DNA of 64,000 nucleotides from Candidatus Spongiisociaceae bacterium (GCA_965219685.1 CBDCOH010000002.1:3557064-3621063), one strand, 5' to 3'; numbered from the stretch's first letter, positions 4,797 to 24,598 are shown. Notes: generated from the letters alone by a model not told the origin. Numbers and translations: made by a program.

Positions 4797-7151
4797 ATGC
4801 CCCTGATAGCAAGGCAGCGTTCGCGGTTGGCTGTGCTGGCCGTGCTCGCCTTGGTGGGTTCGCTTCTTGCCGTTTCTGCGGTGCCTGCGGTCGCCGCCGA
4901 GGACGACAAAGCGGAAGAAACGGCTATGTACTCAGCTTGCGTGGGTGCCGCTGAAGATGACGCCGGGTTCGCCGACATGAGAGGCAACTTCGCCGAAGAT
5001 GAGGCCAATTGCTTGGCTCACTATGGGATCACTCTGGGAACCGGAACCGATGAGGACGGCAACTCTGTGTACGGGCCGAGCAGTTCCGTTACCAGGTGGC
5101 AGATGGCTCTGTTCCTGAGCCGCGCGGCCGGTCCTGCGGGTATCGAGTTGCCGATGGCCTCGGATCAGATGCTGTCCGATATCGGCAGCTTGGACGATGC
5201 GACCCAGGACGCCATCAACCAGATGGCCGACTTGGGCATCATGGCGCCGCGCTCGTCCGGGATGTTCGATCCCAACGGAGTAGTGTCCCGTAAGGATATG
5301 GCTGTCCATCTGGTCGGCTTCCTCTCCAAGGCCCTTCAGGGTCCCGGCAGCGTTTCCCTTGAAAAGCTTCAGAGCGACGACGGTCTCGGTAGCGGCAAGT
5401 CGCCGTTCACCGACATCGGTGATGTCTCGGTCAGCGCTCACGAGGCCATCAGGGATGTCTTCGAGTTGGGCGTGGCCGAAGGTACATCGGCTACGGAATT
5501 CTCGCCTGATGCTCCGGTGCGCCGGGACCAGATGGCGGCGTTCATCACCCGGGCTTTGGCCCACACCAATGCCCGCCCCGCCGGTCTCACTGCACAGGCC
5601 GACGCCGGTGGCGACACCGGGACCGAGGTCTCGATCTCTGTGTCGGTCCGTGACGACGACCACGGAGTGGTGCCTGACGCACTGGTCGGCAGGATCCATA
5701 CCACCACCCCGGATACGGCGTTCGATGATGCCGGAGAGTGCGATGACGCAACCGGTGATTGCACGCTCAACACCGGCAACGAGGCCACGGATCCGGACGG
5801 CAACGCTGAGCTCCAGGTCACCCTTCCCGATGAGGCTGGTACCTTGACGGTATGGGTGTGGACCGGTGAGTCCGGTGACGAATTCGACGCCGACACCACC
5901 GACTCCGCGATGCTGGAGATTGACGCGGCTCTTCCGGCCACGACGGTGAAGGTCAGCAACGACAACAAGGCCGGGTCGCAGTTCCTCAAGTTCGGTGACA
6001 CGGTTACCTACACCTTGCAGGTTGTCAACAGCGAGGGTGACCCTGTTGCCAAGGCCGGCGCCAAGGTGCAGGTCACGGCTGACGTCCAAACTGTCACTGT
6101 CGCAGCAGAAAATACTCCTGCTCTGAGTGACAATGTTGTCACCGTTACCCCAGGCGGTGTCTCGAGTAGAACCATTAAGACTCACGAGACGGACGCGGCT
6201 GGACAGATCGAACTCTCGTTCACCCACGACGATCCCGATGGGGACACTGCAGGGAATCGGGTCCAGTTGAGCCTGGCGCTGGTTCTGACGGTTGATGGGG
6301 ATCTCGAGACGGTGTCGACTGCGGATCTCAACGACCATCTCGTTGCCACTGACACCCTTGCGAACACCCCCGACAACGGTGCGGACAACATCGGAGTCAT
6401 CTGGTCGGACGCCTCTTCGAGGGCCACGACCATTACGCTCGGTCAAGCGATCAAGTATCACGAGACCAATGCCAACGGGGTTCGCAACACGATCACGGCC
6501 ACGCTGGTTGACCAGTACGGTGATCCGGTCAGGGGCGTGAAGGTTGGACTCTGGTCCGGTGTGACCAATACCGATGCGACTACTACTGCCGCAGCGATTC
6601 TTCAGGGACTCGGTGGCGGTACTTCGGGCTCGCCGGGTGCATCAACCGACATCGCCGATAGTCGCACTACCAACAGGAATGGTGTAGCGACCAAGTCGTA
6701 TACCCGCAATGTTGTGGATGCGGCTCGGGAGCAGGTCGGTGCTTCGTACAGCGCGGTTGTCGGCTGTGATGACACAGACACCGGCGGCACCCCTCCCTGC
6801 ACCGATGTGGCTGATGCGATGGATATTGACATTGCCATCACCAACGTGGAAACTGGCGACAATGGTCTCGATCACTACTGGGCTACGCGGCTCGGTGTGG
6901 GTACGGTGAACGACCAGGTTGTCCTGGTTGCAGATACGGACAACAACACGGTTGTGGCCGGCACTGCGACTGCGCCGACGTTGGCGACCTACGATGCCAA
7001 TGATCACTTCCAGGTCGACGGCGCCAATACCACCATGGAAGCCTTCGAGAAGGCTCTCGGTGGCGCCGATGACAACGACACGGTGGATATCACTATCACG
7101 AGTACTGCTGATAATGCGATCAACACGTTCAACTTCGAGAACGTGGCCTGA
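4797..7151 (+). CDS. Secreted SLH-domain surface protein, paralog 1 (signal peptide, 3 SLH-like modules, Ig-like domains)
   Basis: RBS ggaagggaggg precedes the ATG. The signal peptide is RLAVLAVLALVGSLLAVSAVPAVAA. SLH-like modules include FADMRGNFAEDEANCLAHYGITLGT..VTRWQMALFLSRA. The AHTNARPAGLT hinge and the invasin/Big-like motif ITATLVDQYGDPVRGVKV are present. Confidence 0.85.
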   Translation: MPLIARQRSRLAVLAVLALVGSLLAVSAVPAVAAEDDKAEETAMYSACVGAAEDDAGFADMRGNFAEDEANCLAHYGITLGTGTDEDGNSVYGPSSSVTRWQMALFLSRAAGPAGIELPMASDQMLSDIGSLDDATQDAINQMADLGIMAPRSSGMFDPNGVVSRKDMAVHLVGFLSKALQGPGSVSLEKLQSDDGLGSGKSPFTDIGDVSVSAHEAIRDVFELGVAEGTSATEFSPDAPVRRDQMAAFITRALAHTNARPAGLTAQADAGGDTGTEVSISVSVRDDDHGVVPDALVGRIHTTTPDTAFDDAGECDDATGDCTLNTGNEATDPDGNAELQVTLPDEAGTLTVWVWTGESGDEFDADTTDSAMLEIDAALPATTVKVSNDNKAGSQFLKFGDTVTYTLQVVNSEGDPVAKAGAKVQVTADVQTVTVAAENTPALSDNVVTVTPGGVSSRTIKTHETDAAGQIELSFTHDDPDGDTAGNRVQLSLALVLTVDGDLETVSTADLNDHLVATDTLANTPDNGADNIGVIWSDASSRATTITLGQAIKYHETNANGVRNTITATLVDQYGDPVRGVKVGLWSGVTNTDATTTAAAILQGLGGGTSGSPGASTDIADSRTTNRNGVATKSYTRNVVDAAREQVGASYSAVVGCDDTDTGGTPPCTDVADAMDIDIAITNVETGDNGLDHYWATRLGVGTVNDQVVLVADTDNNTVVAGTATAPTLATYDANDHFQVDGANTTMEAFEKALGGADDNDTVDITITSTADNAINTFNFENVA

Positions 7152-7173
7152 TCGATCAGAAGCTCTAGAACAC

Positions 7174-7203
7174 GGAGGGTCCCGGCGAGAGCCGGGACCC
7201 TCC
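7174..7203 (+). terminator. 13-bp perfect stem-loop after paralog 1 (no U-tract)
   Basis: ggagggtcccggc-gaga-gccgggaccctcc, 23 nt after the stop. Confidence 0.5.
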
Positions 7204-7377
7204 CGCGTTCCGGCCCGCTCAACTGTTCACAACGCCTCGCTGACGGCCTTTTCGCCTCGAACCAAGGTCCGTCGCGCTGCTTACGCCTACCTAGTTCGGC
7301 GATGCTTTAGTTACCACGAATACGGCGGGTTTCCCGTTAGGCTGGGTGGCTAGACCACGGACAAGGAGCGAGACCTG

Positions 7378-9495
7378 ATGTTGAGGCGTTCACCGTTGGC
7401 CACGCTGGCCCTGCTCTCTCTGGTTGCGACGCTCCTGGCCCTGCCTGTGATTCCCGCCGCAGGCCGGAACGGGGAGGCGGACGACCTCCCCCTCTACACG
7501 GCATGCCCAGCGGCCGCGATCGAGTCCGCCGGATTCGAGGATGTCGCGGCGAGTAGCGTCGCCAGGGATGCAATCAACTGCATGGTCCACTTCGGGATCA
7601 TGCCGGGTACCTCCTCCACGACCTTCGAGCCCGGCTTGGGGGTGACCCGCCAGGAGATGGCCCTGATCCTCATCCGGGCGGCAGGTCCCGCCGGGATCGA
7701 CGTGCCCCGAGCGCGGGACCAAGGCTTCGATGACATCAGCCACCTGCCCCGTGAGGTTAGAGACTCCATCAACCAACTTGCCGAGCTGGGTATTACCAGG
7801 GGCACCACCGCGTCCACCTACGTTCCCGGCGGGGTGGTCAACCGCCGCGAGATGGCCCAGTTCTTCACCCGCTTCCTGCGGGAGGCGCCGGTAGGCGAAG
7901 GGGGCGTAGACGTCGATTCGGTCATACCGGACGACCGTGTGTTCACCGATATCGAACTTCTTCCCCACGATCCCTACGACGCCATCCGGCTTATATACGA
8001 GTTGGGGGTGACGAAGGGCACCACCGCCACCACCTACGGTCCTGACGATCCGGTGACACGGGCGCAGATGGCCCTGTTCGTCAGCCGGATGCTGGCCCAC
8101 ACCAATGCGCGTCCGGCCGGTATCACGGTGCAGGTGGAGGACGCCTCCGTTACCGCTGAAGACACGGTCGACCTCGTGGTGTCCCTCCGGGACGATGACC
8201 ACCTACCGATGGTCGACGAGCCGATCGACCTCTTCTACGTGGCTGCGGGCGACGAGGGCTTCTCCTCTAGCGGCAGGTGCAGCAGCAAGGCGATCATCGA
8301 GGCGGGCAGCAGCCGGTGCGCCATCGACCTCGGTGACGAGACCACTGACGGCGACGGGAACCTGTTCTACACGATGGAGATTCCCGAAAGCCTGGCGGTT
8401 TACGCCTGGACCGGCGACCGCAACGACCGCTTCGATATTGACAGCACCGACCATGCCACCCTGAATATTGCCGCGTCCAAGAATCCCGACGGGTTCCTGC
8501 TCACCGACAACATGCGCGAAGGCGCGGAGCGACTTCCGTTCGGGACGACCGTTACCTTCACCTTCCAGGTGGTGGACGAGGACCTCAACCCGGTAGCCGT
8601 GGAAGACGCAGAGATCCGCATCCGGACCGAGGAGTGGAACGACGGCCGCCGGGGTCCGGACCGGACCAGGACCTACACCACCGACTCTTCGGGTCGGGTG
8701 CAACTCACCTTCCGTCTCAGCGACCCGGACCCGGACCGCAACGATCCCCACGGGGAACTCAACCTCGAGGTTCTACGGCATGACTACACGAGGCTGACGG
8801 ACAAGAGCACGGTAGAGATCGACACCACGGCCAACCGGCTACGATGGTCGGACGACGACCCTGAACCCAGGACCCTGCTGCTTGAGCAGAGATCGGTGTA
8901 CAGCAGGGCGACCGCCTCGGGAAGCGCCCACAACCGGGTGACCGCCACCCTGCTCGACCAGTATGGCGATCCGGTGCGGGGCGTGCGGATCCACTTCACC
9001 TCGGGCGACGCGAACGGTCTGTGGTCGAAAGACGGAAACGGCACCGACGCTCAGAACGCCTACCGCAAGACCACCAGCAGGCGGGGAGTGGCCACGGTGA
9101 ACTACACCCGCAACTCGGCCGCCTCGACGATAGAGATGATCGATGCACGCGCCGAGAACTGCAGCACATGCAGCAGAACAATCGATCACTACTGGGTGAA
9201 GGACACGCCCACGAACCTGCAGGAAGACGGTGTCATGGTCCGTCACTACGACGCTGATGCGGATACGTTGGTGTTCGAAGTTACCAGCGGCGGGAACGCT
9301 GGCGTGTACGCGATCACCTTTGACTCGTTCGACCACTTCTACGAATTCGATAGCACCACCAGTACGGACGTGCCGATCAGCTACCAGGCGTTCAAAGAGG
9401 CGCTGGCCGAGTACACGACTACGGATGCGACCCTCGACGTGAACATAATCGGCAGCGATGCCGACGACGTGAACCGGTTCGAGTTGCAGCCTTAA
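7378..9495 (+). CDS. Secreted SLH-domain surface protein, paralog 2
   Basis: RBS caaggag precedes the ATG. Signal peptide LATLALLSLVATLLALPVIPAAG. It has three SLH-like modules, AHTNARPAGIT and VTATLLDQYGDPVRGVRI. Confidence 0.85.
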   Translation: MLRRSPLATLALLSLVATLLALPVIPAAGRNGEADDLPLYTACPAAAIESAGFEDVAASSVARDAINCMVHFGIMPGTSSTTFEPGLGVTRQEMALILIRAAGPAGIDVPRARDQGFDDISHLPREVRDSINQLAELGITRGTTASTYVPGGVVNRREMAQFFTRFLREAPVGEGGVDVDSVIPDDRVFTDIELLPHDPYDAIRLIYELGVTKGTTATTYGPDDPVTRAQMALFVSRMLAHTNARPAGITVQVEDASVTAEDTVDLVVSLRDDDHLPMVDEPIDLFYVAAGDEGFSSSGRCSSKAIIEAGSSRCAIDLGDETTDGDGNLFYTMEIPESLAVYAWTGDRNDRFDIDSTDHATLNIAASKNPDGFLLTDNMREGAERLPFGTTVTFTFQVVDEDLNPVAVEDAEIRIRTEEWNDGRRGPDRTRTYTTDSSGRVQLTFRLSDPDPDRNDPHGELNLEVLRHDYTRLTDKSTVEIDTTANRLRWSDDDPEPRTLLLEQRSVYSRATASGSAHNRVTATLLDQYGDPVRGVRIHFTSGDANGLWSKDGNGTDAQNAYRKTTSRRGVATVNYTRNSAASTIEMIDARAENCSTCSRTIDHYWVKDTPTNLQEDGVMVRHYDADADTLVFEVTSGGNAGVYAITFDSFDHFYEFDSTTSTDVPISYQAFKEALAEYTTTDATLDVNIIGSDADDVNRFELQP

Positions 9496-9512: not shown

Positions 9513-9541
9513 GGTGCGGGGAGCCGACGCCTCCCCGCACC
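9513..9541 (+). terminator. 11-bp stem-loop after paralog 2 (no U-tract)
   Basis: ggtgcggggag-ccgacgc-ctccccgcacc. Confidence 0.5.
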
Positions 9542-9671
9542 CTCTCCCCCGCTCAGAACGTGAGGCGCAGGTCGTCGCTCCGGTCGTTCCGAGACTCACG
9601 TTCGCACGAGACCGCCAGGTCGTGTTGTGGGTGGCCTAACATGTGTTCACACGAGGAGAGGAGGGACTCCC

Positions 9672-11807
9672 GTGAACTGTCAGGTTTTCATGTCCGTGCC
9701 GGCCGCTGGTCTTCGGTCGGCAGTAAGCCTCCCAGGAACGGGAAGGGCAGGGTACCGTAAGCGGTGGATGCCGCTGGCTGTCCTGGCGCTTTCGGGTTCT
9801 CTACTGGTAGCCTCAGCCGCGCCGGTGCTAGGCGTGGTAGGTGTTACGGACCATACGGCCCGGCTCTCCGCTTGCGTGGGCGCGGCTCTTGATCCGGCTG
9901 GCTTCCACGACACGGAGGGCAGCTTCGCCGAGGAGGCGGCCGACTGCCTCGCCCACTACGGGATCACCTTGGGGACCAGCCCGGAGATGTTCTCGCCCGG
10001 GCAGGTGGTGACTCGCGAGCAGATGGCCCTGTTCCTGGCGCGGGCGGCGGGTCCGGCCGGGTTCGAGCTACCGGAGGTCTCCGATCAGGGATTCACCGAC
10101 CTCGACGCCGGGTCCGTCGGCCATGATGCCATCAGCCAACTGGCCGAGCTCGGAATAGTGGAGGGAACCTCGACCACCGCCTTTGACCCGCAGGGCCCGG
10201 TTACCCGCGAGCTGATGGCGTTATGGCTGGCCCGGTTCCTCAGCGCCGCCCCCACCGGTCCGGGAGGTACGGACATCGATCATGTCGAACCCGATGACGA
10301 CCACTTCACGGACATCTCCTCGGTCGACTTCAGGACCCGCGCCGCCATCCGCAAGATCTACGAGATGGGTGTGACCCAAGGGACGTCGGCCTTCACGTTC
10401 TCGCCCGCCAAGGAGGTAACACGGGGACAGATGGCCGTGTTCATCAGCCGCATGCTGGCTCACACCCACGCCCGCCCGGCCGGGTTGACCATCCAGGCAG
10501 CCGAGCCGGCACTCTCCGGGGATTCCGATGTCACGGTGTCGATCTCCTACCGGGACGAGCACCATCGACCCCGGGCGGCCCGGATGGTAGACGTTTTCGC
10601 GTCCACGAACCCCGGAATGGCCTTCGACGACGCCGGCCGATGCACCGGCCACGTCTTCTCGCTGATAGGGCCCGGACAGGCTTGCGTGATGGATAGCTCG
10701 GACCACATCACGAGCCCCTCCGGGTACCTGCGGACCGATATGGATCTGGCGGATGTCGGCGCGCTGCGGGTCTGGGCCTGGCAAGGTCCCAATGGCACCC
10801 TGTACGACGACGACGCCGAAAGGGAGGCGGTCCTCGACATCAGGACCCTCAGTTTCCCAATGGCCCTAGAAGTTAGCGACGACATGCGGCCCACCGCCCG
10901 CAAGCTCCGCCTGGGCGACACGGTGACGTTCACGTTCCGGCTGGTCGATGCTGACGGCGCCCCCGTAGCCAAGCCGGGCGTGAAGTTCAGCCTCGGTTTT
11001 GAGCAGTCAGTGAACGGGCACAGCCTCGGGCTCCGCACCATCGTCAAAGAGACCGCCTCGGACGGCTCGTTCGAGATGGAGTTCCGTCGAGTGGATCAGA
11101 ACCCCGAGCCCGAGGACCTGGGTGACATAGCGCAGTTGGACCTTGATGTTCTGGACAGCGGCATGCTGGGGGTGAAAGACAGGACGACCCTCGGGATGCT
11201 GGCGAACGACGGCACCAGCGATGACAGTCTGCTCGACTGGTCGGACGAGGAGGGAGTGACCACATCCCTCACGCTGTCCCTGCCGGAGGATTACGTCGTA
11301 GCCTCCTCGGAGGGCAGCGGTGCGAGCAACAGGGCACGGGCGAGCCTCACCGATCAGTACGGATCCGGAGTGGCTCGTGGCGGGGCGATAACCTTCACGT
11401 CCACCGACCCCTCGGTGGCGCCTAACAATGTCAACCGCGCCGCCAATGTGGGAGGGGTGGCCATCCTCGATTACCACCGGGACTCCGACTCCGGCGCCAC
11501 GGAGTGGATCACTGCCCGGTCCGGCACGCTCACGGCCGGGGCCCGCCAATACTGGGCCGGCCGCATCCCCGCGGGCACCGGCGGTTCCGGAGAGGTAGTG
11601 GTGGTCGACCCCGGCAACAACCGGGCGGTGCTGTTGAGCGGCGACGATGTCTGGCTCGTGGAGTACAGCTTCGCCGACCGCTTCGAGATCGGCGGCGAAC
11701 GCGTCCGGATCTCCACCTTCGAGGACACCTTGACGGTGGGGAACACCCTCGCCTTCGAGATCTCACCATCCGGCGCAGCCAACACCTACACCCTCACCAG
11801 CCGCTAA
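9672..11807 (+). CDS. Secreted SLH-domain surface protein, paralog 3 (start uncertain: GTG 9672 or ATG 9690)
   Basis: RBS aggagaggaggga lies 5-6 nt before GTG 9672. Signal peptide MPLAVLALSGSLLVASAAPVLG. It has SLH-like modules, AHTHARPAGLT and ARASLTDQYGSGVARG. Confidence 0.8.
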   Translation: MNCQVFMSVPAAGLRSAVSLPGTGRAGYRKRWMPLAVLALSGSLLVASAAPVLGVVGVTDHTARLSACVGAALDPAGFHDTEGSFAEEAADCLAHYGITLGTSPEMFSPGQVVTREQMALFLARAAGPAGFELPEVSDQGFTDLDAGSVGHDAISQLAELGIVEGTSTTAFDPQGPVTRELMALWLARFLSAAPTGPGGTDIDHVEPDDDHFTDISSVDFRTRAAIRKIYEMGVTQGTSAFTFSPAKEVTRGQMAVFISRMLAHTHARPAGLTIQAAEPALSGDSDVTVSISYRDEHHRPRAARMVDVFASTNPGMAFDDAGRCTGHVFSLIGPGQACVMDSSDHITSPSGYLRTDMDLADVGALRVWAWQGPNGTLYDDDAEREAVLDIRTLSFPMALEVSDDMRPTARKLRLGDTVTFTFRLVDADGAPVAKPGVKFSLGFEQSVNGHSLGLRTIVKETASDGSFEMEFRRVDQNPEPEDLGDIAQLDLDVLDSGMLGVKDRTTLGMLANDGTSDDSLLDWSDEEGVTTSLTLSLPEDYVVASSEGSGASNRARASLTDQYGSGVARGGAITFTSTDPSVAPNNVNRAANVGGVAILDYHRDSDSGATEWITARSGTLTAGARQYWAGRIPAGTGGSGEVVVVDPGNNRAVLLSGDDVWLVEYSFADRFEIGGERVRISTFEDTLTVGNTLAFEISPSGAANTYTLTSR

Positions 11808-12184
11808 TCTCCCCAGGACGCGCGCCAGCCGCCACGCGCCGGAGGAAGGGGCTAGTCAAGGCCGCCGGTTAGTCCTTATAGTTCGGACGAGAGCCAGAGA
11901 GAAGAACTTGCGTGACCGCGATCACCGAACGGCTGGTCGATGCCACAGAGCAGGCCCGCGAAGCCGCGTCCCACACCAATCTCGCGCAAGCCACGCACTC
12001 CTTCGAGAAACGGGTCAATCCAGGTCGGCTTCCGTATCATCGCGATCGTGATACACGCCAAGATCGCCTCGCAGCCCTAGTGTTAGCCTTCCTCAATCGA
12101 CCAACGCCGCCGCTGGCGGCTTGTAGATTCTGATGCGATAGTCTAACGTAGATAGCACTACATCATTGCGATGGAGAGGTAGAA

Positions 12185-13540
12185 GTGACAGCTGAGGTCG
12201 CCATCCTCAACCGTGAAGCCGTTGCCATGGCCGCCGACAGTGCTCTCACGCTGGGCGGGCCTGTCGGCAAGGTCTACAACAGTGCCAACAAGCTCTTTGC
12301 CCTGTCGAGGCTGGAACCAGTGGCTGTCATGGTCTACGGAGCGGGTTCGTTCGAGGGAATCCCCTGGGCGACGGTTGTCAAGGAGTATCGCCGTAAGTTG
12401 GCTGCAGGCACATTTGCAACGATCGAGGACTACGCGTCGGATTTCATCGGATACCTCTCATCCCTGGTACATCACATGCCGGCCGACTTCCGGCGACGAA
12501 GTGTTCTTCTGAGGGTGTCCTGGGAGCTCGACCAGCTACGGGATGCGATTGACGCCAAGGTATCCGGCGATCTTTCCGATGACAACCAGGTGACTGATCA
12601 CATACTGGATCGGATTGAGTCGAGGATCGGCCAGCTAGAAGCGGAGGGTGATGAGACCGGGCCCGATGAGTCGGCGGCTGTTCAAGAGTTCAACGAGGCC
12701 ATTGACGACTGGGACGGTTTGATTATGACGTTCCTGAAGGATTTGCCAGCGACGGATACTGTCAAGGAGAGGGCCCGGGCCATGGTGTGTACCTCGCTGC
12801 GGGTCGCCACTTGGTCGCCGGCATCGTCCGGTGTCGTTGTCGCCGGCTTCGGGACTTCACAGCTGTTTCCGGCCCTTTCCCACCACTTGGTAGATGGCAT
12901 CCTCGTGGACCGGGTCCGAGTTCGTCAGATTCAGGGGGTCCAGATTGGTTGGCAGCAGTCTGCTGTGATCTGTCCGTTCGCGCAGCAGGACATGGTGCAA
13001 ACATTCATGGACGGTCTACATCCGGACTTTCCACACGCGCTTGGCGGGTTCATTGATGAAACGATGCGGCTGTACGCGAGTCACTTCGGCGAGCAGGTTC
13101 AGAATGCTCTTCCCTCCGACGAGTACGGGGGACTGATGGAAAGGATGGCCACGGCGAGATCCGAGACTGTCAAATGGTTCCAGGAGCAGATGAGGGATCT
13201 GCTGGAGCAGCAACATTCAGGTCCGATCATGTCGATCGTTAGTATGTTGCCCAAGGAGGAACTGGCGGAGATGGCCGAAGCGCTCGTCAACCTCACGTCT
13301 CTTAAGAGGCGGGTCACTCCGGAGGACGAGACCGTAGGCGGTCCGGTCGATGTTGCGGTGATCTCGAAAGGTGATGGACTTATCTGGATCAAGCGCAAGC
13401 ACTACTTCGCCCCAGAGCTGAACCACCGGTTTTTCGACCGTGACCAAGATCTGTCAACAGGTAAGACAGGTAGCCTTTCTTGCCGAAGGGCTCCGGACGA
13501 TCGGACTGAAGATCGGGACGGGACAGGAGGCAGGTTATGA
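12185..13540 (+). CDS. Candidate Ntn-hydrolase of the proteasome-beta/HslV type with a large helical insertion (451 aa)
   Basis: GTG start with RBS ggagagg. The protein begins (M)TAEVAILNREAVAMAADSALTLG..KVYNSANKLFAL, like the TT(I/V)vai..g.v.aaD..t.g...K(i/l) start of HslV/beta subunits. The C-terminal ETVGGPVDVAVISKGDGLIWIKRK resembles the GG.i.v..i.kdG strand. This is pattern resemblance only. Confidence 0.45.
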   Translation: MTAEVAILNREAVAMAADSALTLGGPVGKVYNSANKLFALSRLEPVAVMVYGAGSFEGIPWATVVKEYRRKLAAGTFATIEDYASDFIGYLSSLVHHMPADFRRRSVLLRVSWELDQLRDAIDAKVSGDLSDDNQVTDHILDRIESRIGQLEAEGDETGPDESAAVQEFNEAIDDWDGLIMTFLKDLPATDTVKERARAMVCTSLRVATWSPASSGVVVAGFGTSQLFPALSHHLVDGILVDRVRVRQIQGVQIGWQQSAVICPFAQQDMVQTFMDGLHPDFPHALGGFIDETMRLYASHFGEQVQNALPSDEYGGLMERMATARSETVKWFQEQMRDLLEQQHSGPIMSIVSMLPKEELAEMAEALVNLTSLKRRVTPEDETVGGPVDVAVISKGDGLIWIKRKHYFAPELNHRFFDRDQDLSTGKTGSLSCRRAPDDRTEDRDGTGGRL

Positions 13541-13719: not shown

Positions 13720-13761
13720 ACGCACCCACCAAACCTGGTACTTCGCTGCAAGGCAGGAGTC

Positions 13762-14173: not shown

Positions 14174-14424
14174 TCCCCCAAGGCTCGCCCAGCCGACATG
14201 GGCTTCGAAAGGGGCTAGTCAAGGCCAGCGGTAGCTCTTATATTCCCAAGAAGAGGTCAGCGCGGGAGGGGTAGCCAGTGACCGCAGTCACCGGGGCCGT
14301 GGTCGATGTCGAAGACCAGGCTCGCTAAGCCGAGCCCCGTACGATCTTCGCATAGGCATTGAACGCCCGCAGATCGGCAACATCTGAGCGGTGATACAGT
14401 CCCTCGCGACAAAAGGAGCAGGAA

Positions 14425-15351: not shown

Positions 15352-17445
15352 ATGTTCCCGTCGAGGAGAAGTACCTGGTCGGCGGTGGTCCTGGTCTCGG
15401 TCCTGCTGGGGATCTCGTTGGTTCCGGCCTCCGCCTGGAACGGGGAAGCCGACGAGCCGGCCCTCTACTCGGCCTGCGTGGGTCCGGCGTTGGAAGAGGC
15501 CCGGTTCTCGGATGTCCGCAGGTACCCGGCCGAGATGAGGCAGGCCATAAACTGCCTCTCCCATTACGGGATCACCTACGGCACCGGCGTCGACACCTTC
15601 TCACCGGACGCTCCGGTAAGCCGCGAGCACATGGCGCTGTTCCTGGTCCGGGCGGCCGGACCGGCCGGGATCGACGTGCCCAGGGCTTCCAGTCGGCCCG
15701 CTCGGGACTTCACGGATGTGGAGGGGCTGTCCGACGAGTCGCTGGAGGCAATCGACCAACTGCTCCGGATGGGCATCACGGTCGGCAAGACCCGCTCCAC
15801 GTTCGCTCCCCACGAGACGGTCACCCGAGACCAGATGGCCCTCTTCCTGTACCGGTTCCTCGATCTGGCCCCGGTCGGTCCGGGAGGGGTCGATGTCGAA
15901 GACGCCTTCCCCGACGACAGGCACTTCGAGGATCTGAGGGACTTGCCGATCAGGACTTACGACGCGGTGCGTACCCTGTTCGAGATGGGGGTGGTGGAGG
16001 GCACCTCGAGAACCACCTTCAGCCCCCACCGGCCGGTGACCCGAGCCCAGATGGCGCTGCTGATCACCCGGATGCTCGGCCACACCAACGCCCGGCCCGC
16101 CGGCCTCACCATGCAAACGGACGGCGTGGTGGTGGACGCCGAAGCCGACGCCGAGGTGGTGATCTCGATACGGGACCGGTGGCATCGCCCCGTACCCGAT
16201 GAGCTGGTGGACGTGTTCGAGTGGACCGTGCCGGACTCCCGCCGGGTCGACCCCTTCGATACGCAAGGCCGGTGCGAGGAGGACCAGGTCCGGGTCGTGT
16301 TCGGGAACGATCCCTGCGAGATCGATCAGAGCGACGACACCACGGACCCGGACGGGAACCTGGAGTTCGAGCTGTTCGTGGACGACGACCTGACCCTGTG
16401 GGCGTGGAGCGGGGACCTGCGAGATCGATTCGATCTGGACCGCACGAACTATGTCTCGATCGAGTTCACCGCCGTGGAGCCGCCAGACGCCTTCAAGGTG
16501 ACCGACGACATGCATCCCGAAGCGGAGAAGATGCTGTACGGGAACTCGGTCACCTTCACGTTCCAGCTGGTTGACGAGGACGGGAAGCCGGTGCGCCGGG
16601 GGGACGTGGAGATCGAGATCCAGACTGAGGAGATGAGCAACAACCAGCTGGCCAGGAGGGAGACCAAGACCTACTACACGGACTCGGGCGGGGAGGTCAC
16701 CCTCTACTACCGCATCAACCGCGCCCGGTACGGCGACACCAACACCGAAAGCGAGTTGAATGTCATCGTGCTGGACTCAGCCGGTCTGGATGTGACCGAC
16801 GAGACCACAGTGGACGTCCTGGGCACGGACGTGCTGGTGTGGTCCAGAGAGGAGCGCGAGCCCACCACCTTGGTGCTGTCCCAGACGCTCGAGTACCACA
16901 CCGCCGAAGCCAGCGGAGGCCGCAACCGGGTGACCGCCACCCTCATAGACCAGTACGGCGACCCGGTGCGGGGCGAGATGGTCCACTTCAGGTCGAACGA
17001 CAGTGCCGGCCTGGACGCCGATTCGACGGATCCGAGCCTGGCCAAGGAGAACTACCGGAAGCCGACCAGCAGGCGAGGAGAGGCCACGGTCACCTACATC
17101 CGCGACTCCGCCACCCCGGAAACCGAAGACTTCGCTACCACCTTCGTTGAAGGCGAGACGGTGACCGTCGCTGGGATGACCAAGCATTACTGGGTGCTCC
17201 CCGCTCCAGCAGGACAGACCAGCGGCGTACTAGTTCTCCACGACACCAGGAGGAGCACCCTCGTGTACGACCCGACGAACGCCGGTCCCTACACGATCGC
17301 TTACGACTCCAGAGACTATTTCTACCTAGGAGCCAGCCCGGAAAGCTACGACAGTTTCCGCGCGAAGGTGATGGAAGGCCAGACCCTGACGGTAGACGTG
17401 ACCTCTCACAGAGCGAGCGACGTCAACACCTTCACGCGCAGCTAG
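15352..17445 (+). CDS. Secreted SLH-domain surface protein, paralog 4
   Basis: RBS gggagga precedes the ATG. Signal peptide WSAVVLVSVLLGISLVPASA. It has three SLH-like modules, GHTNARPAGLT and VTATLIDQYGDPVRGEMV. Confidence 0.85.
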   Translation: MFPSRRSTWSAVVLVSVLLGISLVPASAWNGEADEPALYSACVGPALEEARFSDVRRYPAEMRQAINCLSHYGITYGTGVDTFSPDAPVSREHMALFLVRAAGPAGIDVPRASSRPARDFTDVEGLSDESLEAIDQLLRMGITVGKTRSTFAPHETVTRDQMALFLYRFLDLAPVGPGGVDVEDAFPDDRHFEDLRDLPIRTYDAVRTLFEMGVVEGTSRTTFSPHRPVTRAQMALLITRMLGHTNARPAGLTMQTDGVVVDAEADAEVVISIRDRWHRPVPDELVDVFEWTVPDSRRVDPFDTQGRCEEDQVRVVFGNDPCEIDQSDDTTDPDGNLEFELFVDDDLTLWAWSGDLRDRFDLDRTNYVSIEFTAVEPPDAFKVTDDMHPEAEKMLYGNSVTFTFQLVDEDGKPVRRGDVEIEIQTEEMSNNQLARRETKTYYTDSGGEVTLYYRINRARYGDTNTESELNVIVLDSAGLDVTDETTVDVLGTDVLVWSREEREPTTLVLSQTLEYHTAEASGGRNRVTATLIDQYGDPVRGEMVHFRSNDSAGLDADSTDPSLAKENYRKPTSRRGEATVTYIRDSATPETEDFATTFVEGETVTVAGMTKHYWVLPAPAGQTSGVLVLHDTRRSTLVYDPTNAGPYTIAYDSRDYFYLGASPESYDSFRAKVMEGQTLTVDVTSHRASDVNTFTRS

Positions 17446-17466: not shown

Positions 17467-19560
17467 TCAGGCCGCGTTGACGCTGATGGTGTGGTAGCCG
17501 GTTGCTCCGTCGGGTCGGGGCGGTTGGACCCTGGCGGTCTGGGTGGAACCGGTGCCGTCGGCTGCTCTGACCGCGATCGTGTGGGGACCGGGGGTGAAGT
17601 CGTGTTCCAGGTACCACTGGCGCCAGGTATCTATGGACAGTTCCTGGGGAAGGGTCGCGTTCGTCCATGGGCCGTCATCGACCTGGACCTGTACCCTGAT
17701 GATTCCCCGGTTCTGGGCCCACGCGACTCCGGCGATGACGTTGGGGCCGGCTTTGATCTTTCCCTCCCTGGGGGTGTCGATCCGTGACTGGGTCTTGATG
17801 GGCGCCTCCTTGGCCCATCCTCTCGGGATCCAGTAGGCGTCGAAGTCGTTCCATCCGGTGAACTCCACCTCGGTCAGCCACTTGGTGGCCGACACGTATC
17901 CGTACAGGCCGGAGACGACCAGGCGGGCCGGGAACCCGTGTCGGAGCGGGAGCGGCTCACCGTTCATTCCTACCGCCACCAGGGCCTCGCGCCCGTCGAA
18001 CACCGCGCTGGTGGGGAAGCCCACCGTGAACCTGTCGACCGACCGGCCAACCAACTGGGTGCCTCCCCGCCGGACACCGGCCCGCTCGACGAGCTTCCAG
18101 AGTGGAACGCCCAGCCACTTGGCGTTGCCGACCAGATTCCCGCCCACCTGGTTCGACACGCAGGCGAGCGTGATGTAGCGCTCCACCAGCGGCATGGCGA
18201 TCAACTCGTCGTAGGTGATGCTGAAGGGGGTGTCCACCTGGCCGGTGAAGGAGAGGGTCCAGGTCCGGAGGTCGACAGTGGGAGTGCCGATGGCGGTGTC
18301 GACCACGTAGAACTCGTGGTTGGGCGTGATCAGGTCCGAGACGCCGTCGACGGGTGCGATCTGGGCACGGGTCGGAGCCGCCACGCCGGAAACGGCCGGC
18401 TCGGTTGTGGTGGTCGTCTGGACTGGCTGGGTGGTTGTGGTGGTCGTCTGGACTGGCTGGGTGGTCGTGGTGGTCGTCTCGACTGGCTGGGTGGTTGTGG
18501 TGGTCGTCTGGGCCGGCTGGGTGGTTGTGGTGGTGGTCTGGACTGGCTGGGTGGTTGTGGTCTCGACCGGCTGTGCTGTGGTGGTGGCCCCCTGCGTCGT
18601 CTCGGTGGTTGCGGGCTGGGTGGTTGTGGTTTCGACCGGCTGTGCTGTGGTGGTGGCCCCCTGCGTCGTTTCGGTGGTTGCGGGCTGTGTGGTGGTGGCG
18701 TCGGACGGCTGGGTCGTTCCGGCGGTCTCGGCGGCGGCAGGGACGGTCTCGTTCGTGGCGGGTGCCTCCGGCGCCTGGGTGATCTCGGCGGCGGCGGCGG
18801 TGGAGGGCGCCTCGGCCGCCTGAACGGTGTCGGCGGAGGCCGATGTGGGTTCGGTGGCAGCCATCGTGTCGGCGGCGGCCGTCCCCGTCGTGGTCGCGGT
18901 GTCGTCCGCCGACGGAAATGCGGTGGGGAGTGTCACCTGCTCCCGTCCGATGACGGCCGACCGTACCCGGCTTCCGAGGTAGCGGCCGAGGAGAGTCTCG
19001 CCCACCGATACGGCCACCGTCGCGGCCGACGCGGTGAGGAAGACGCGCCGTGATCCGGCGGCGACGCCTCCCTCGGGAGAAACGGAACGCTGCAACAGGA
19101 AGCGGAGTCCCAACAGCACCCCTACGCCCATGGCCGTAGCAGCCGCCGCGGCGACCAAGGGAAGAAGGGCTCCGGCCAGCGGGTCGGTCCGCCCTGCCGC
19201 ATAGCCGACCATGCCGAACACTACGAAGCCGGCCGCGGCCAGACCCGGACGGTCCCTGGCCAGGATGCCGAGAAAAGCGCCGATCACGAGGGAAACAACG
19301 ACGATCCCGATCACCAGCACCAACTTGTCATTGGTGCCGAAGGTGGCGATGGCCCAATCCACGACAGGTACCGGGCTGTTGTCGATGACCCGTTGACCGA
19401 TAGTGCGTATCAGAGACGGCGCGGACAGGAAGAGACCCGCCACCAGCTCGGAAACGGCGAGAGCGGCGCCCGCGGCGACCACACCCAGCAGAGCGAAGTC
19501 GAGCCGGGACCGCAAGGAGATGCGACGCCTGGGTTCCGGAGCCTGGTCTTCATGCTTCAT
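17467..19560 (-). CDS. Membrane-anchored sulfite-oxidase-family molybdopterin oxidoreductase with a Thr/Pro/Gln-rich repeat linker
   Basis: Start ATG at 19558-19560 (MKHEDQAPEP..). About six TM helices and a T/P/Q-rich linker follow. The catalytic part reads ITPNHEFYVVDTA..ITLACVSNQVGGNLVGNAKWLGVPL..NGEPLPLRHGFPARLVVSGLYGYVSATKWL, then an Ig-like C-terminal domain. The ORF-track extension to 20049 was discounted. Confidence 0.8.
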   Translation of the reverse strand: MKHEDQAPEPRRRISLRSRLDFALLGVVAAGAALAVSELVAGLFLSAPSLIRTIGQRVIDNSPVPVVDWAIATFGTNDKLVLVIGIVVVSLVIGAFLGILARDRPGLAAAGFVVFGMVGYAAGRTDPLAGALLPLVAAAAATAMGVGVLLGLRFLLQRSVSPEGGVAAGSRRVFLTASAATVAVSVGETLLGRYLGSRVRSAVIGREQVTLPTAFPSADDTATTTGTAAADTMAATEPTSASADTVQAAEAPSTAAAAEITQAPEAPATNETVPAAAETAGTTQPSDATTTQPATTETTQGATTTAQPVETTTTQPATTETTQGATTTAQPVETTTTQPVQTTTTTTQPAQTTTTTTQPVETTTTTTQPVQTTTTTTQPVQTTTTTEPAVSGVAAPTRAQIAPVDGVSDLITPNHEFYVVDTAIGTPTVDLRTWTLSFTGQVDTPFSITYDELIAMPLVERYITLACVSNQVGGNLVGNAKWLGVPLWKLVERAGVRRGGTQLVGRSVDRFTVGFPTSAVFDGREALVAVGMNGEPLPLRHGFPARLVVSGLYGYVSATKWLTEVEFTGWNDFDAYWIPRGWAKEAPIKTQSRIDTPREGKIKAGPNVIAGVAWAQNRGIIRVQVQVDDGPWTNATLPQELSIDTWRQWYLEHDFTPGPHTIAVRAADGTGSTQTARVQPPRPDGATGYHTISVNAA
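18400..18720 (-). repeat. Imperfect ~30-bp tandem repeats encoding TTTTTQP(V/A)(Q/E)T units
   Basis: The plus strand reads ggttgtggtggtcgtctggactggctgggt reiterated, plus two ~66-bp units encoding TTQPATTETTQGATTTAQPVET. Confidence 0.75.
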
Positions 19561-19582
19561 CCATCCAAGAGTAGAGGGATCT

Positions 19583-19618
19583 GGTGGATTGTGGATGGTG
19601 GAATTAGTGGCTTGTGGC
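19583..19618 (+). repeat. Degenerate heptamer patch (GGTGGAT/TGTGGAT/GGCTTGT) in the 5' leader of the Mo-oxidoreductase gene
   Basis: ggtggattgtggatggtggaattagtggcttgtggc lies 23 nt upstream of the minus-strand start. It is C-rich on that gene's sense strand. Confidence 0.6.
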
Positions 19619-20031
19619 GAGCCCCGAGTCTTCATCGATCGGGGTTTGTAGGGGTTGACGGAGCGGGAGTTCTGGAATCCTGACCTGGCATTACGGCTAC
19701 CGATAGCCTTGTCCTGGAGACGGTGCGAGTTCACCCGCCGCGTGAAGGCGGCCTCTACGGAGTCCATAGGGTTCAACTGGCCTGATGTACATCGGTGTGC
19801 CGGGGACATGAAGATGCTTCTATGACGCTCCCATATTGTGGAAGTCGGTTGTCGGTATCTATCCACTATTGAGATCGGGTGGAGAGATGATGTTTGTGGC
19901 CCGGCGCGCTCGAGTGCTGGGATAAGGCTGTGTTGTGTCCGGAGGCTCCGGCGGCCCGCATGGTGGTGACGCCTGCACCACCCACGATGCACCGCCAGAG
20001 GCCCCGGATCCCGATCCGATCCCAGGTCGCC

Positions 20032-20064
20032 CCACCAGCCACAAACCACAAGTCACAAGCCACC
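20032..20064 (+). repeat. CCACAAG-type heptamer patch in the 5' leader of paralog 5
   Basis: ccaccagccacaaaccacaagtcacaagccacc ends 7 nt before ATG 20071. Confidence 0.6.
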
Positions 20065-20070: not shown

Positions 20071-22173
20071 ATGTCTCCAGGCAAGCAGACGGAGGTAGTG
20101 CGGGTGTTGCAGGAGGCTAAAGGCCGTTGGCGGTGGATCGGGCCGATCCTCCTAGCGGTGGTCGGTTCCCTTCTGGCTGTTCCAGCGGTTCCCGTAGCCG
20201 CGCGGTCCGGGCATGCGGACCATCCCGCCCGGTATTCGGCCTGCGTGGGGGCCGCGACCAAGCCGTTCGGGTTCGATGACACGGAAGGCAACTTTGCAGC
20301 GGCGGCCATAGATTGCCTGGCGCACTACCGGATCACCAAGGGGACCTCGGCGACCTCATACAGCCCCGGCGAGGTGATACCACGGTGGCAGATGGCTCTC
20401 TTCCTCGCTCGGGCGACCGGCCCGACCGGCATCACGCTACCGCCTCCCGTCGCGCGGGGATACACCGACATCGCCCGGTTGAGTCCCGCTGCCCGCGATG
20501 CCATCCACCAGCTGGCGCAGTTGGGGATCATGCTCGGCACGTCCGCCACAACCTTCGACCCGTACGCGCCGGTGACCCGCGTGCAGATGGCGGTGCTGCT
20601 TGCCCGGTTCCTGGACGCCGCCCCTACGGGTCCGGGAGGAACGGACATCAAGGACGTGGAACCCGACGACAATGTCTTCCGTGATCTCAGCGGGGTGCCG
20701 TTCAGCACGTACCAGGCGATCCGCCGTCTCTACGAACTGGACGTCACCGAGGGCACATCGGCCAGCACCTTCTCGCCTGCCGCGCCGGTGAGCCGGGCCC
20801 AGATGGCCGCTTTCATCACCCGGATGCTGGCCCACACCAACGCCCGCCCGTCCGGCGTGTCCGTGCAGACTCCCGAGGAAGATGTATTCGCGAACTCTGA
20901 CGCCCTCGTGCTGGTCTCGGTGCGTGACCCCAATCACCAGCCGTTCTTCGAAGCGAGCGTGGACATCTTCATGGCCGCCGATCCCACCAAGGCCTTCGAC
21001 AAGGACGGCCGCTGCACGGAGAAAGCCCTGGCTGCGGCGGGTGCGCTGGCGTGTGTCATGGACAACTCCGACCCGGAGACCGATGCCGCGGGCAACGCGT
21101 CGGTCCCGGTGGAGGTCGGCGATGACGACTCCCTGCGTATATGGGCGTGGAGAGGGGAAGACGGCGCGGCTTTCGACGAGAATACCTCCGAGGCGGCGAC
21201 CGTCGACATCGAGCTTCTCAGCGACGCCACCGCCTTGGAGGTCACCGACGACCTCGCACCCACCGCCCGCAAACTCCGCTTCGGCGGCTCAGTGACGTTC
21301 ACGTTCCAGTTGATCGACAGGGACGGCGACCCGGTGTCGAAGCCGGGCGTCAGCTTCAGCATCAACGTGGCGGAGTCGAGGGACAACGGCCGCACCTTCG
21401 ACCGGAGCGTCATCACCAAGGAGACCGGTGTCGACGGCGCCGCCCAGGTGACCTTCCTCCACTCGGACCCCACCGCCCAGCCGGGTGACGTGGCCAGCCT
21501 CGACCTCGATGTCAGGATCGGCAACAACCTGGGCGTCGTGGACGCCACCACCATCGGGATGGTGGACGACGACGGCACCAACGACGATCCCCTGCTCGAC
21601 TGGGTCGACGAACGCGCCGAGCCCACTTCGCTCGTGCTGACGGTGCCCAGGGAATACCGGGTCGCCTCCTCGGAGGACACCGGCGCGGGCGGCGCCGTGA
21701 GGGCTACCCTCACCGACCAGTTCGGCGGACCGGTGGTTCGCGAGCAGATCTCCTTCAGGTCGAGCGATCCCATGGGGGTTCCCAGCGGGGTGCGGCGCGC
21801 CACCAACTCGAGCGGCGTGGCCACCCTCCACTACCTGCGGGACTCCGCGGCGGGCGGCGTCGAGAGGATCACCGGCCAGTACGAGCGGGTGGTGGCCACC
21901 GTCCGCCAGTTCTGGGCGGGCCGGGTGACCGGCGCCGCCACCGGCTCCGGTGAGGTGAGGGTCGTGAACACGGACGACAACACGGTGATCGTGGTGGCGG
22001 GCCGCGACGTCCGGCTGGTCGCGTACGACGCCAACGACCACCTCTACATCGGCACGGAGACGGTTCACATAGACGGATTCGAGGAAGCCCTGAGCGTCGG
22101 CGACACCCTCGCCTACGAGATCAGCAGCACGGCCGAGAACGCGATCAACACCTTCACGCTCACCGACAGTTGA
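20071..22173 (+). CDS. Secreted SLH-domain surface protein, paralog 5 (start set at ATG 20071)
   Basis: It begins MSPGKQTEVVRVLQEAKGRWRWIGPILLAVVGSLLAVPAVPVAA. It has three SLH-like modules, AHTNARPSGVS and VRATLTDQFGGPVVRE. Confidence 0.8.
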   Translation: MSPGKQTEVVRVLQEAKGRWRWIGPILLAVVGSLLAVPAVPVAARSGHADHPARYSACVGAATKPFGFDDTEGNFAAAAIDCLAHYRITKGTSATSYSPGEVIPRWQMALFLARATGPTGITLPPPVARGYTDIARLSPAARDAIHQLAQLGIMLGTSATTFDPYAPVTRVQMAVLLARFLDAAPTGPGGTDIKDVEPDDNVFRDLSGVPFSTYQAIRRLYELDVTEGTSASTFSPAAPVSRAQMAAFITRMLAHTNARPSGVSVQTPEEDVFANSDALVLVSVRDPNHQPFFEASVDIFMAADPTKAFDKDGRCTEKALAAAGALACVMDNSDPETDAAGNASVPVEVGDDDSLRIWAWRGEDGAAFDENTSEAATVDIELLSDATALEVTDDLAPTARKLRFGGSVTFTFQLIDRDGDPVSKPGVSFSINVAESRDNGRTFDRSVITKETGVDGAAQVTFLHSDPTAQPGDVASLDLDVRIGNNLGVVDATTIGMVDDDGTNDDPLLDWVDERAEPTSLVLTVPREYRVASSEDTGAGGAVRATLTDQFGGPVVREQISFRSSDPMGVPSGVRRATNSSGVATLHYLRDSAAGGVERITGQYERVVATVRQFWAGRVTGAATGSGEVRVVNTDDNTVIVVAGRDVRLVAYDANDHLYIGTETVHIDGFEEALSVGDTLAYEISSTAENAINTFTLTDS

Positions 22174-22459: not shown

Positions 22460-24598
22460 TTGGCTCGAAGAAACCGCAAGAGGCCGGCACATGACAGGCA
22501 CATGACAGTTTTCTCGAATCGTACGGGTGCGATCCTGGCGACGACCATGGTCGCTTCCCTGCTCGTGCTGGCACCCGGACCGCTGAAGGCGGTCGACGGC
22601 AGGTCCGACAACGTGGCGGCCTACTCCGCCTGCGTGGGTCCTGCAACTGTATCGGCGGATTTCGCCGATACAGTTGATCACTTCGCCGAGAAGGCCATCG
22701 ACTGCCTCGCGTACTACGGGATAACGCTGGGCACCGCCGCGGGCCAGTTCTCCCCCGACCAGTTCATCACCCGCGCGCAGATGGCCCTATTCCTCGTCCG
22801 GGCGGCCGGTCCGGCGGGGGTGAGCCTGCCCACGCCGGCGAGCCGGGGGTTCTTGGACATCTTGGGCGAGGCGCAATTCGTCCGGGATGCGATCAACCAG
22901 ATCGCGGCGCTCGGAATCACGGCGGGCACGTCAGCCACCACATTCCACCCTGACGTCCACATGGACCGCCGGACGATGGCCCTCTTCCTCTACCGGTTCC
23001 TCCTGCTGACCCAGCAGGGACCGGGCGGGACCGGCGCGGCCCTGGTGACGCCCGACGACACATTGTTCGAAGATTTGGGCAACGAGGACGATGCGGTTGT
23101 CAACGCAGTCGGCGTGCTCTACGAGATGGGCGTGACCCACGGCAAGACGGCTACGACCTTCGCTCCTTCCGACCTGGTGACTCGGGCGCAGATGGCGCTG
23201 TTCATGACCCGGGCCCTGGCGCACTCCAACACCCGGCCGGCCCGCGTGACCATCCAGAGCCGGGCCGACGTCGTTCCCAGCGGGGACACACTCGAGGTGA
23301 GTATCTCCGTCAGGGACACCAGGTTCCGCCCGAGGTCAGGGTCGCTGGTCGACGTGTTCTCCACCCCTTCCCGAGACCCGTACGCCTCGTTCGGTCAGGA
23401 CGGGGACTGCCTCCGAAGGGTGGAGGTGGCCTTCGGAAGCCGAGTCTGCGTGATCGATCAATCGGACCGGCGCCTGGACCAGATGGGCAACCTGGTAGTC
23501 GTCCTCGAACCCACCGACAACCTGCTGCTATGGGCATGGACGGGTTCTTCGGGCGAGGAGTTCCGCACCAACGCCACCGAGTACGGTTCCATCCGGATCG
23601 AGGTGCTCAAGCCTGCCACGGCGGTGAGGGTCCGTGACGACATGAAACCTGCGGCCGCCATCCTGAAGTTGGGCGAAACCGTGGAGATGACGTTCGAACT
23701 GGTCGACGAAGACGGTCGCCCGGTCGCCGAGTCCGGGGTACGGATCCAGCTGGCCACGACCTACGAGACGAACGGCGTGATCGGCCGGACCAACATCAGG
23801 ACGCACCGGACCGACGGGGATGGGCGGGTGGTGGTTCCGCTCTCGGCGGCGGACCCCGACCTCACATCCGGTGGCGACTCGGTGAAGGTCGACATCGATG
23901 TGCTGGTGCAGGCGCTCGAGGTGGTGGATCGGAGCAGCCTGCGGGTGGTGGAGAACGATGACGACGACAGCACCGACACCCTGATCACCTGGTCCGAGGC
24001 GGCCCCGGTGGCCTGGACCCTCCGGTTGCGCCAAGCCTCCACGTACAACCAGCTGGACGATTCCATCCTCGGTCCGGTGAACGTGGTCCGGGCGACGCTC
24101 AGGGACCAGTACGGCGATCCGGTGGAGGCCGCCATGATCCAGTTCTCCTCGGATCAGCCCTTGGGCCTTGGTACGACCGGTGTGACCAGGACCGCAGGGG
24201 TCGACGGGGTGGCCACCCTGCGGTATATGTGGAACGGTTCCGGGTCGGCGTCCGAACTCATCTCCGCCGAGGCCACAGGCTTGGACGTCGAGGCTGTGTC
24301 CGTTCACCACTACTGGGCGGTTCTCCAGGCGGGAGGCAGGTCCGCCCTGGCGGTCCCCATCCTGGCGAGCGACATCTACAGGAACGTCATCCTCCACGAC
24401 GCCAGGTCGCCGCGGCTGCTCCGTTACGACGCCAACGACCGTTTCTCGATCCGGGACACCGTCGTCAGCATGACCGCCTTCGAGGAGGCCCTTACCAGCG
24501 GCGACTACAGCCGGATCACCTACACCAAGTACTTCGACGAGCCCGAAGATGTCAGCTTCTTCGACCTCACCAACACCAGGATTTTCGACGACGCCTAG
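22460..24598 (+). CDS. Secreted SLH-domain surface protein, paralog 6 (start TTG 22460 or ATG 22502)
   Basis: Signal peptide GAILATTMVASLLVLAPGPLKA. It has three SLH-like modules, AHSNTRPARVT and VRATLRDQYGDPVEAA. Confidence 0.8.
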   Translation: MARRNRKRPAHDRHMTVFSNRTGAILATTMVASLLVLAPGPLKAVDGRSDNVAAYSACVGPATVSADFADTVDHFAEKAIDCLAYYGITLGTAAGQFSPDQFITRAQMALFLVRAAGPAGVSLPTPASRGFLDILGEAQFVRDAINQIAALGITAGTSATTFHPDVHMDRRTMALFLYRFLLLTQQGPGGTGAALVTPDDTLFEDLGNEDDAVVNAVGVLYEMGVTHGKTATTFAPSDLVTRAQMALFMTRALAHSNTRPARVTIQSRADVVPSGDTLEVSISVRDTRFRPRSGSLVDVFSTPSRDPYASFGQDGDCLRRVEVAFGSRVCVIDQSDRRLDQMGNLVVVLEPTDNLLLWAWTGSSGEEFRTNATEYGSIRIEVLKPATAVRVRDDMKPAAAILKLGETVEMTFELVDEDGRPVAESGVRIQLATTYETNGVIGRTNIRTHRTDGDGRVVVPLSAADPDLTSGGDSVKVDIDVLVQALEVVDRSSLRVVENDDDDSTDTLITWSEAAPVAWTLRLRQASTYNQLDDSILGPVNVVRATLRDQYGDPVEAAMIQFSSDQPLGLGTTGVTRTAGVDGVATLRYMWNGSGSASELISAEATGLDVEAVSVHHYWAVLQAGGRSALAVPILASDIYRNVILHDARSPRLLRYDANDRFSIRDTVVSMTAFEEALTSGDYSRITYTKYFDEPEDVSFFDLTNTRIFDDA

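Follow-up and report, generated by a model that had tools for sequence, protein, structure and literature searches.

Does a family of surface-protein genes in a sponge-associated bacterium serve to change the cell's coat by switching between copies? The question is raised by a 64,000-nucleotide (nt) stretch of DNA from Candidatus Spongiisociaceae bacterium (GCA_965219685.1 CBDCOH010000002.1:3557064-3621063), called the window below, which carries six paralogous genes on one strand, here named A to F (Table 1). A first-pass annotation likened them to the sap genes of Campylobacter fetus and suggested a family suited to antigenic or phage-receptor variation. Variation there is, but it lies between strains and is concentrated in gene A, not among the six copies. 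The explanation that we consider probable is that A encodes the major S-layer-type coat protein and varies by allele replacement, that B to F encode stable minor wall proteins and that there is no switching.

The annotation had placed six open reading frames (ORFs) on the plus strand, and all of them are there. The motifs that it listed (the AHTNARPAG hinge, a Cys pair, VTFTFQ, DQYGDPV and YDANDHF) are all present in the alignment of the six proteins, which align along their whole length. Pairwise amino acid (aa) identity is 34-51%, the closest pairs being C/E (51%) and B/D (45%). The family had been described as having a conserved anchor and a strongly diverged remainder. The anchor is indeed the more conserved part, but the gradient is only modest, with mean pairwise identities of ~50% in the surface layer homology (SLH) part and 22-45% elsewhere. 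A tblastn search of the window with the six proteins found no seventh full-length copy.

The SLH assignment itself is firm. Pfam SLH (PF00395) matches all six proteins at E-values of 1e-16 to 4e-26, with two or three modules scored and 58-91 bits against a cut-off of 20.8, and three TRAE-like motifs can be recognized in each protein. This supports the view of them as a paralogous family of surface proteins with SLH anchors, and as plausible candidates for S-layer proteins. The ligand-binding residues of SLH modules are the Arg of TRAE, the Gly of GIIxG and SLH-Trp13, and in solved complexes the Arg contacts the pyruvate of the wall polymer (PMC6081394). Here the Arg is retained in all 18 modules and the Gly in 17 of them; the second module of A has GIMAPR in place of GIIxG. 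AlphaFold2 models of A and D, built with homologue alignments, consist of a helical SLH part (approximately residues 40-245) followed by four beta-sandwich domains (predicted local distance difference test score 83.3 for A, which has extra low-confidence loops, and 90.3 for D). The only solved structures matched by sequence are the SbsB and Sap anchors, and the match is confined to the SLH part. With the exposed part, the best Foldseek matches are arrays of macroglobulin (MG)/Ig-like domains (complement C3/C4, alpha-2-macroglobulins, TEP1) and invasin 1cwv, at E-values of 1e-9 to 1e-12 and template modelling (TM) scores of 0.12-0.21. For these models, the fold match is a generic tandem beta-sandwich resemblance only.

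How old are the copies? The family is large: searches with D, A and E each list 600-870 homologues, many contigs carry several members, and 349 clusters (50% identity) match F at E <= 1e-30, the closest cluster representative being 54% identical to F over its full length. Relatives of D lie in metagenome-assembled genomes labelled Acidimicrobiia, and the runs that contain window sequence or close relatives include sponge metagenomes. In six other loci, from five or six genomes, an A-type gene always comes first and a B-type gene always second. One-to-one orthology and conserved order hold in loci L003, L004/L005 and L010-L013, with C and D next in line in L003 and L004. The duplications must be ancient, because A-B(-C-D) recur as one-to-one orthologues in the same order. 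They predate the compared lineages, and the copies have not been homogenised since.

The members do not diverge at the same pace. B orthologues, always adjoining A, are 72-80% identical in the six other loci, whereas the A orthologues of the same genomes are 50-66% identical, and A diverges faster than B in every one of the six. Orthologues of C reach 81% in L004 and 73% in L003, those of D are 71-90% identical, and homologues of E are 97%, 80% and 79% identical. The exposed domains of A diverge about twice as fast as those of B to D.

The comparison with L004, the closest relative, locates this divergence within A. Nucleotide identity between the window and L004 is 94-100% at 4529-5200 and 43-70% at 5500-7300, which includes the terminator region. 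Beyond A it recovers to 80-90% in B, and most of D is at 94-99%. For this pair of genomes, synonymous divergence (dS) is ~1.0 in the exposed part of A and 0.21 in its SLH part, compared with 0.47-0.57 in B, 0.22-0.36 in C and 0.10-0.20 in D. Positive selection alone would not raise dS. From the heterogeneity of dS between adjacent segments of the same two genomes we infer that A is a mosaic, created by allele import or replacement through homologous recombination. Thus the allelic mosaicism across strains that the proposal of a varying coat calls for is found at gene A, both as a drop in identity and as a rise in dS. The parts of A that vary most among homologues are domain 2 and the C-terminal domain.

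There is a precedent for a gene of this kind. A preprint describes slpA of Clostridioides difficile as highly variable between strains and swapped by homologous recombination (bioRxiv 10.1101/2025.04.02.646754), and its product is also reported to be a phage receptor (PMC10100898). Gene A resembles an slpA cassette in being hypervariable between conserved stretches of flanking DNA, with an excess of dS inside, a replaced exposed part and high RNA (see below). The likeness extends to the wider slpA/Cwp family, which likewise comprises many paralogues with a triple wall-anchor module, several of them clustered, and one abundant coat protein, for which A is the candidate here. However, the anchor is SLH in one case and CWB2 in the other. 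In addition, A is not visibly a two-subunit precursor as SlpA is, its exposed fold is predicted to be a string of beta-sandwiches, the host is an uncultured actinobacterial sponge associate and the window is without SecA2 or glycosylation genes. In Firmicutes the principle is already established: the anchor is SLH, the exposed part varies and the gene of the major coat recombines.

The second line of evidence comes from RNA. Two sponge metatranscriptomes from different studies (X13 and X14) were compared with 1-53.2 kb of the window at a match threshold of 85%. In both, A is the sole gene covered by long RNA contigs, which are ~86% identical to it at the nt level. A 1.7-kb A contig has a depth of 23 in X13, where 5' pieces reach 101-131, and the A contigs of X14 have depths of 3-8. 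The contig of depth 131 spans 4646-4885, starting at least 150 nt upstream of the A ATG. There are no contigs for B, only a 33-nt match for C and short, low-depth traces for D to F, which are <90% identical and possibly come from other organisms. The remainder has only 35-180-nt RNA matches to conserved motifs. Contaminating DNA would give even coverage of the entire locus, so the signal is specific to A. Furthermore, the exposed part of A is the fastest-evolving and is still ~86% identical, so the B to F orthologues of the RNA strain would be expected above 85% if they had been assembled. One check put forward with the annotation was whether a single copy dominates expression, and A dominates the RNA in both metatranscriptomes.

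The DNA in front of A is conserved as well. Its leader is 99.5% identical to the window in L004, 85% in L003 and 73-75% in L010-L013, with long invariant blocks, and the DNA upstream of the leader is unalignable (27-32%) except in L004. Of 16 A-type homologues, with mature parts that are 36-88% identical, 14 have the 34-residue signal peptide of A unchanged (100% identity). In the six comparison loci the 102 nt encoding it match the window at 92-100%. The leader and the near-invariant signal peptide would serve high-level expression and export. Within the leader, a hairpin at ~4723-4767 retains its pairing via two compensatory changes; it is the one hairpin with such changes among seven sequences representing about three lineages. 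Scans for sigma-70 and terminator consensus sequences gave nothing useful for A, and Rfam has no family match in the leader or anywhere else in the window. The leader motif occurs a single time in the window, and a metagenome scan with a 32-nt leader pattern found two loci only, both with the L003 allele. A separate observation is that the predicted consensus fold would pair the A Shine-Dalgarno sequence (GGAGGGC) with codons 2-3 (GCCCCU) at 4792-4808, where all seven sequences are invariant.

How might such a locus work? The six genes, duplicated long ago and apparently transcribed as separate units, would encode cell-wall-anchored surface proteins of a sponge-associated Acidimicrobiia bacterium, each secreted via a Sec-type signal peptide. 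The N-terminal SLH trimer would bind a pyruvylated secondary wall polymer, leaving four MG/Big_1-like beta-sandwich domains to project outward. A would be the dominant expressed member and the candidate for the major S-layer-type coat, presumably forming a lattice. Homologous recombination would swap its exposed domains from strain to strain, the crossovers falling within A's conserved 5' part on one side and close to where B begins on the other. B to F would be stably inherited and have low or conditional expression, like minor wall proteins, and programmed switching among the six copies would play no part. An N-terminal SLH trimer followed by beta-sandwich domains is also the build of SbsB of Geobacillus stearothermophilus (PDB 4AQ1) and of Sap and EA1 of Bacillus anthracis (3PYW, 6BT4), although there is no detectable sequence similarity to them outside the SLH region and the paralogues number six here, not two.

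Several observations do not fit this explanation comfortably, or weaken the evidence for it. The canonical SLH tryptophan is apparently not conserved in the modules of A to F, as read off the alignment. In comparison with SbsB, Sap and EA1, the lattice is a prediction here, and the csaB pyruvyl transferase is absent among the scanned ORFs of the 64-kb window, which is part of a 4.39-Mb contig. The generic, low-TM fold matches of the models would suit an adhesin no less than they suit an S-layer subunit. The RNA consists of assembled contigs of a related strain (~86% nt identity), whose depth is a poor expression measure, and missing contigs are a weak sign of silence for B to F. The A leader folds no better than shuffled sequence in single-sequence folding (z +1.7). 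Finally, the high dS in the exposed part of A could partly reflect misalignment of divergent sequence.

If A is the coat protein, the consequences reach beyond this genome. Acidimicrobiia are common associates of marine sponges, and a coat would be the first molecule met by the phagocytic cells of the sponge and by the phages of the symbionts. Replacement at the strain level would then mark where selection acts on these uncultured bacteria, and the selective agent on A would be phage or sponge phagocytes. The annotation stated that no such system is established for the lineage, and our literature search agrees with it: it found no description of one in sponge Acidimicrobiia, nor of SLH or S-layer proteins in these bacteria or of their cell surface. 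A comparative-genomics study of sponge Actinobacteriota leaves SLH and S-layers unmentioned (PMC11706023). What if the leader/signal-peptide block of A and the start of B are fixed recombination anchors, the former also being an expression signal? In this hypothetical scenario A would be a swappable coat cassette among co-occurring sponge-symbiont strains under pressure from phages and host phagocytes, and B to F would be reserve coats for other conditions. This more elaborate proposal is speculative and we hold it only tentatively. If true, it would give both Actinomycetota and animal symbiont communities their first described S-layer cassette system.

Among the alternatives, the one that survives best is that the proteins are host- or matrix-binding adhesins, in which a beta-sandwich stalk presents a C-terminal binding domain and the paralogues bind different sponge or particle ligands. 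This is possible, although distinctly less likely than a coat. A to F do have Pfam matches to Big_1/Invasin_D3, albeit weak ones, invasin is among the fold matches and six stably conserved paralogues fit functional specialisation. The neighbouring SLH-anchored leucine-rich-repeat proteins also belong here, being of the 'eukaryotic-like' repeat class that has been linked to sponge symbiosis (PMC11706023). However, there is no recognisable lectin or integrin-binding domain, and an SLH plus beta-sandwich build combined with high RNA of one member is typical of Gram-positive S-layer proteins (SbsB, Sap). What the exposed parts share with the Big_1 arrays of invasin and intimin, and with the MG domains of alpha-2-macroglobulin and complement C3, is the predicted tandem beta-sandwich fold. 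Unlike those proteins they have no thioester or bait region, outer-membrane beta-barrel or C-type lectin tip. An adhesin role is also compatible with A being the major coat protein, as S-layer proteins can act as adhesins too.

Another alternative is modelled on B. anthracis, whose genome encodes many SLH proteins and in which the S-layer genes sap and eag lie side by side on the same strand. Coat paralogues might alternate by regulation, according to growth phase or host state, without any DNA rearrangement. The genes A to F appear to be separate transcription units, and the RNA traces of D, E and F, low though not zero, beside the high signal of A could be read in this way. We nevertheless regard regulated alternation as unlikely. 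Both metatranscriptomes (n=2) are dominated by A, no regulator has been identified, and the traces for D to F are short, <90% identical and may stem from other organisms.

That leaves the switching mechanism from which the question arose. In C. fetus, the sap genes share a long near-identical 5' region, a single promoter lies on an invertible segment and the silent copies are promoterless. SapA itself attaches to lipopolysaccharide and has no SLH modules. The corresponding proposal for A to F is that six cassettes recombine via 5' blocks, or reach a single promoter, and so change the coat. There is a superficial likeness: a multigene surface-layer-type family stands in one locus, in tandem on the same strand, with a common N-terminal anchor, one copy dominates the RNA, and two partial copies testify to some past duplication or rearrangement. 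However, none of the distinguishing features of sap is present. A repeat search of 4300-27300 found no near-identical 5' or other long DNA block among A to F, whose best DNA matches are 60-83% over <200 nt, and no significant inverted repeat, the only one found being 34 nt long with 71% complementarity. A conserved 5' recombination block is therefore missing, and N-terminal aa identity is just ~50%. Nor is there an invertible single promoter with silent copies. The annotation credited each gene with its own signal peptide and ribosome-binding site, and each does have its own Shine-Dalgarno/start region, although the starts of E and F need correction (see below). Terminator-like hairpins follow A and B, and none of 200 shuffles folds as well as the one 3' of A. 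DNA runs from the genome's own sample contain a single A allele and no chimeric junctions between paralogues. With the one-to-one orthologues in fixed order, the single leader motif and the ORFs beside the partial copies lacking a recombinase family match, sap-like antigenic variation within the genome is not borne out and must be considered very improbable.

The two partial copies, C' and F', deserve a closer look. Both of the 3' fragments reported earlier are real and both are broken, by frameshifts and, in F', by a TAG. C' is 83% nt identical to C 11395-11880, including ~75 nt beyond the stop, and F' is 78% nt identical to F 24383-24598. That they are donor templates for C and F, used by a diversity-generating retroelement or in shufflon-like 3'-end switching, is scarcely credible: each does sit 1.3-2 kb downstream of the gene that it resembles and spans the C-terminal domain, but the mismatches fall on all four fragment bases with no adenine bias (C': A 19, C 22, T 18, G 20; F': A 9, C 13, G 21, T 7), the fragments are direct and not inverted repeats, they contain frameshifts and a stop codon, the adjacent ORFs have no reverse transcriptase or recombinase family match (Pfam, PHROGs, PADLOC), and the spacer holding C' is lineage-specific, since D lies next to C in L003 and L004. 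We propose instead that C' and F' are decaying remnants in spacers with accessory DNA, unlike silent cassettes.

The C-D spacer of the window is 3.5 kb long, and GC content is 59% over 12-14 kb. C' follows this lower-GC stretch with its phage-family gene, which prompted the idea of an integrative element that might have brought in a replacement 3' end for C. The differences between C and C' are evenly spread (84% identity over the coding part), without an identical core, and C' (87.1% identical to the L004 orthologue, compared with 88.3% for C) is not clearly the closer of the two. The phage-family gene is a 451-aa ORF at 12185-13540 (+), with a full-length match to PHROG 5990 (unknown function; E 1e-102), no match in Pfam or PADLOC, and an 88%-identical copy upstream of D in L007. 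The segment duplicated 3' of C and C' (11853-11882 and 14216-14244, +) includes in both places a promoter-like site, TAGTCA and TATAGT or TATATT with a spacer of 17-18 nt. Between F and F' lies a 286-aa ORF with good codon bias, 24957-25817 (+). Its reading as a degenerate tyrosine recombinase is unsupported, with no match in Pfam, PHROGs or PADLOC.

Table 1. Positions of the six genes, their accompanying signals, the two fragments and the repeat arrays, counted from the first nt of the window.
Feature	Position	Strand	Description
Conserved leader upstream of A	4592-4796	+	~205 nt
Gene A	4797-7151	+	784 aa; signal peptide, 3 SLH modules, 4 beta-sandwich domains (predicted); Pfam SLH
Hairpin 3' of A stop	7173-7205	+	GC-rich, perfect, terminator-like, no U tract; stem ~13-14 bp; fold z -3.3
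Gene B	7378-9495	+	paralogue, 705 aa
Hairpin 3' of B stop	9513-9541	+	fold z-score -2.5
Gene C	9672-11807	+	paralogue, 711 aa
C' pseudogene fragment	13760-14242	+	last 137 codons of a C-type gene and ~75 nt of 3' flank; +1 frameshift
Gene D	15352-17445	+	paralogue, 697 aa
Gene E	20104-22173	+	paralogue, 689 aa counted from GTG 20104
Gene F	22460-24598	+	paralogue, 712 aa from TTG 22460 or 698 aa from ATG 22502
F' pseudogene fragment	25946-26160	+	F-type C-terminus; in-frame TAG and frameshift
Heptamer arrays	710-732, 1958-2057, 3221-3286, 3936-4247, 4331-4394, 4473-4524, 20032-20063, 33855-33894

The corrected starts are as follows. For E, the ATG at 20071 given by the annotation has no Shine-Dalgarno sequence, whereas GTG 20104 stands 8 nt after a GGAGG at 20091-20095. 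The upstream GGAGG and the 689-aa length of P0236, a homologue 97% identical to E, both favour the GTG, which is most likely the true start. The start of F is ambiguous between the two codons given in Table 1, and the ORF of C has an alternative opening at 9627. At the F start an 11-nt unit, GGCACATGACA, is duplicated at 22486-22508 (+). As a result there is an upstream ORF of four codons behind AAGAGG, and its stop codon overlaps the in-frame ATG 22502.

The cluster belongs to a larger island of surface-protein genes. At 27-36 kb the window contains four more SLH proteins, two of which combine leucine-rich repeats with SLH (31113-33806, +, and 34001-35713, -) and would be wall-anchored 'eukaryotic-like' repeat proteins. 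They suggest a route by which such proteins could come to be exposed on the outside of the cell. The other two are short paralogues of 270 and 256 aa (27826-28638, -, and 29145-29915, -), with relatives (61-63%) that in L006 and L007 stand directly downstream of the orthologue of D. From 35 to 64 kb there are ordinary metabolism and transport genes.

Repeats are a further feature of the region. The gene at 26541-27182 (-) is made up of 6.7 copies, 98% identical, of a 63-nt unit and encodes a coiled-coil-like protein of 213 aa. Between D and E, a gene at 17467-20049 (-) for an 860-aa molybdopterin oxidoreductase-domain protein has 30-nt and 69-nt tandem repeats (18403-18698) upstream of its catalytic domain. 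Many of the spacers between genes, those in front of A and E among them, are occupied by tandem heptamer arrays (CACCATT, CACCACT, CCACAAG, CAGCCAC). Contig depth at 4200-4310 in the genome's own sample is 5-10 times that of the surroundings, which indicates that the heptamer repeats are numerous in that sample.

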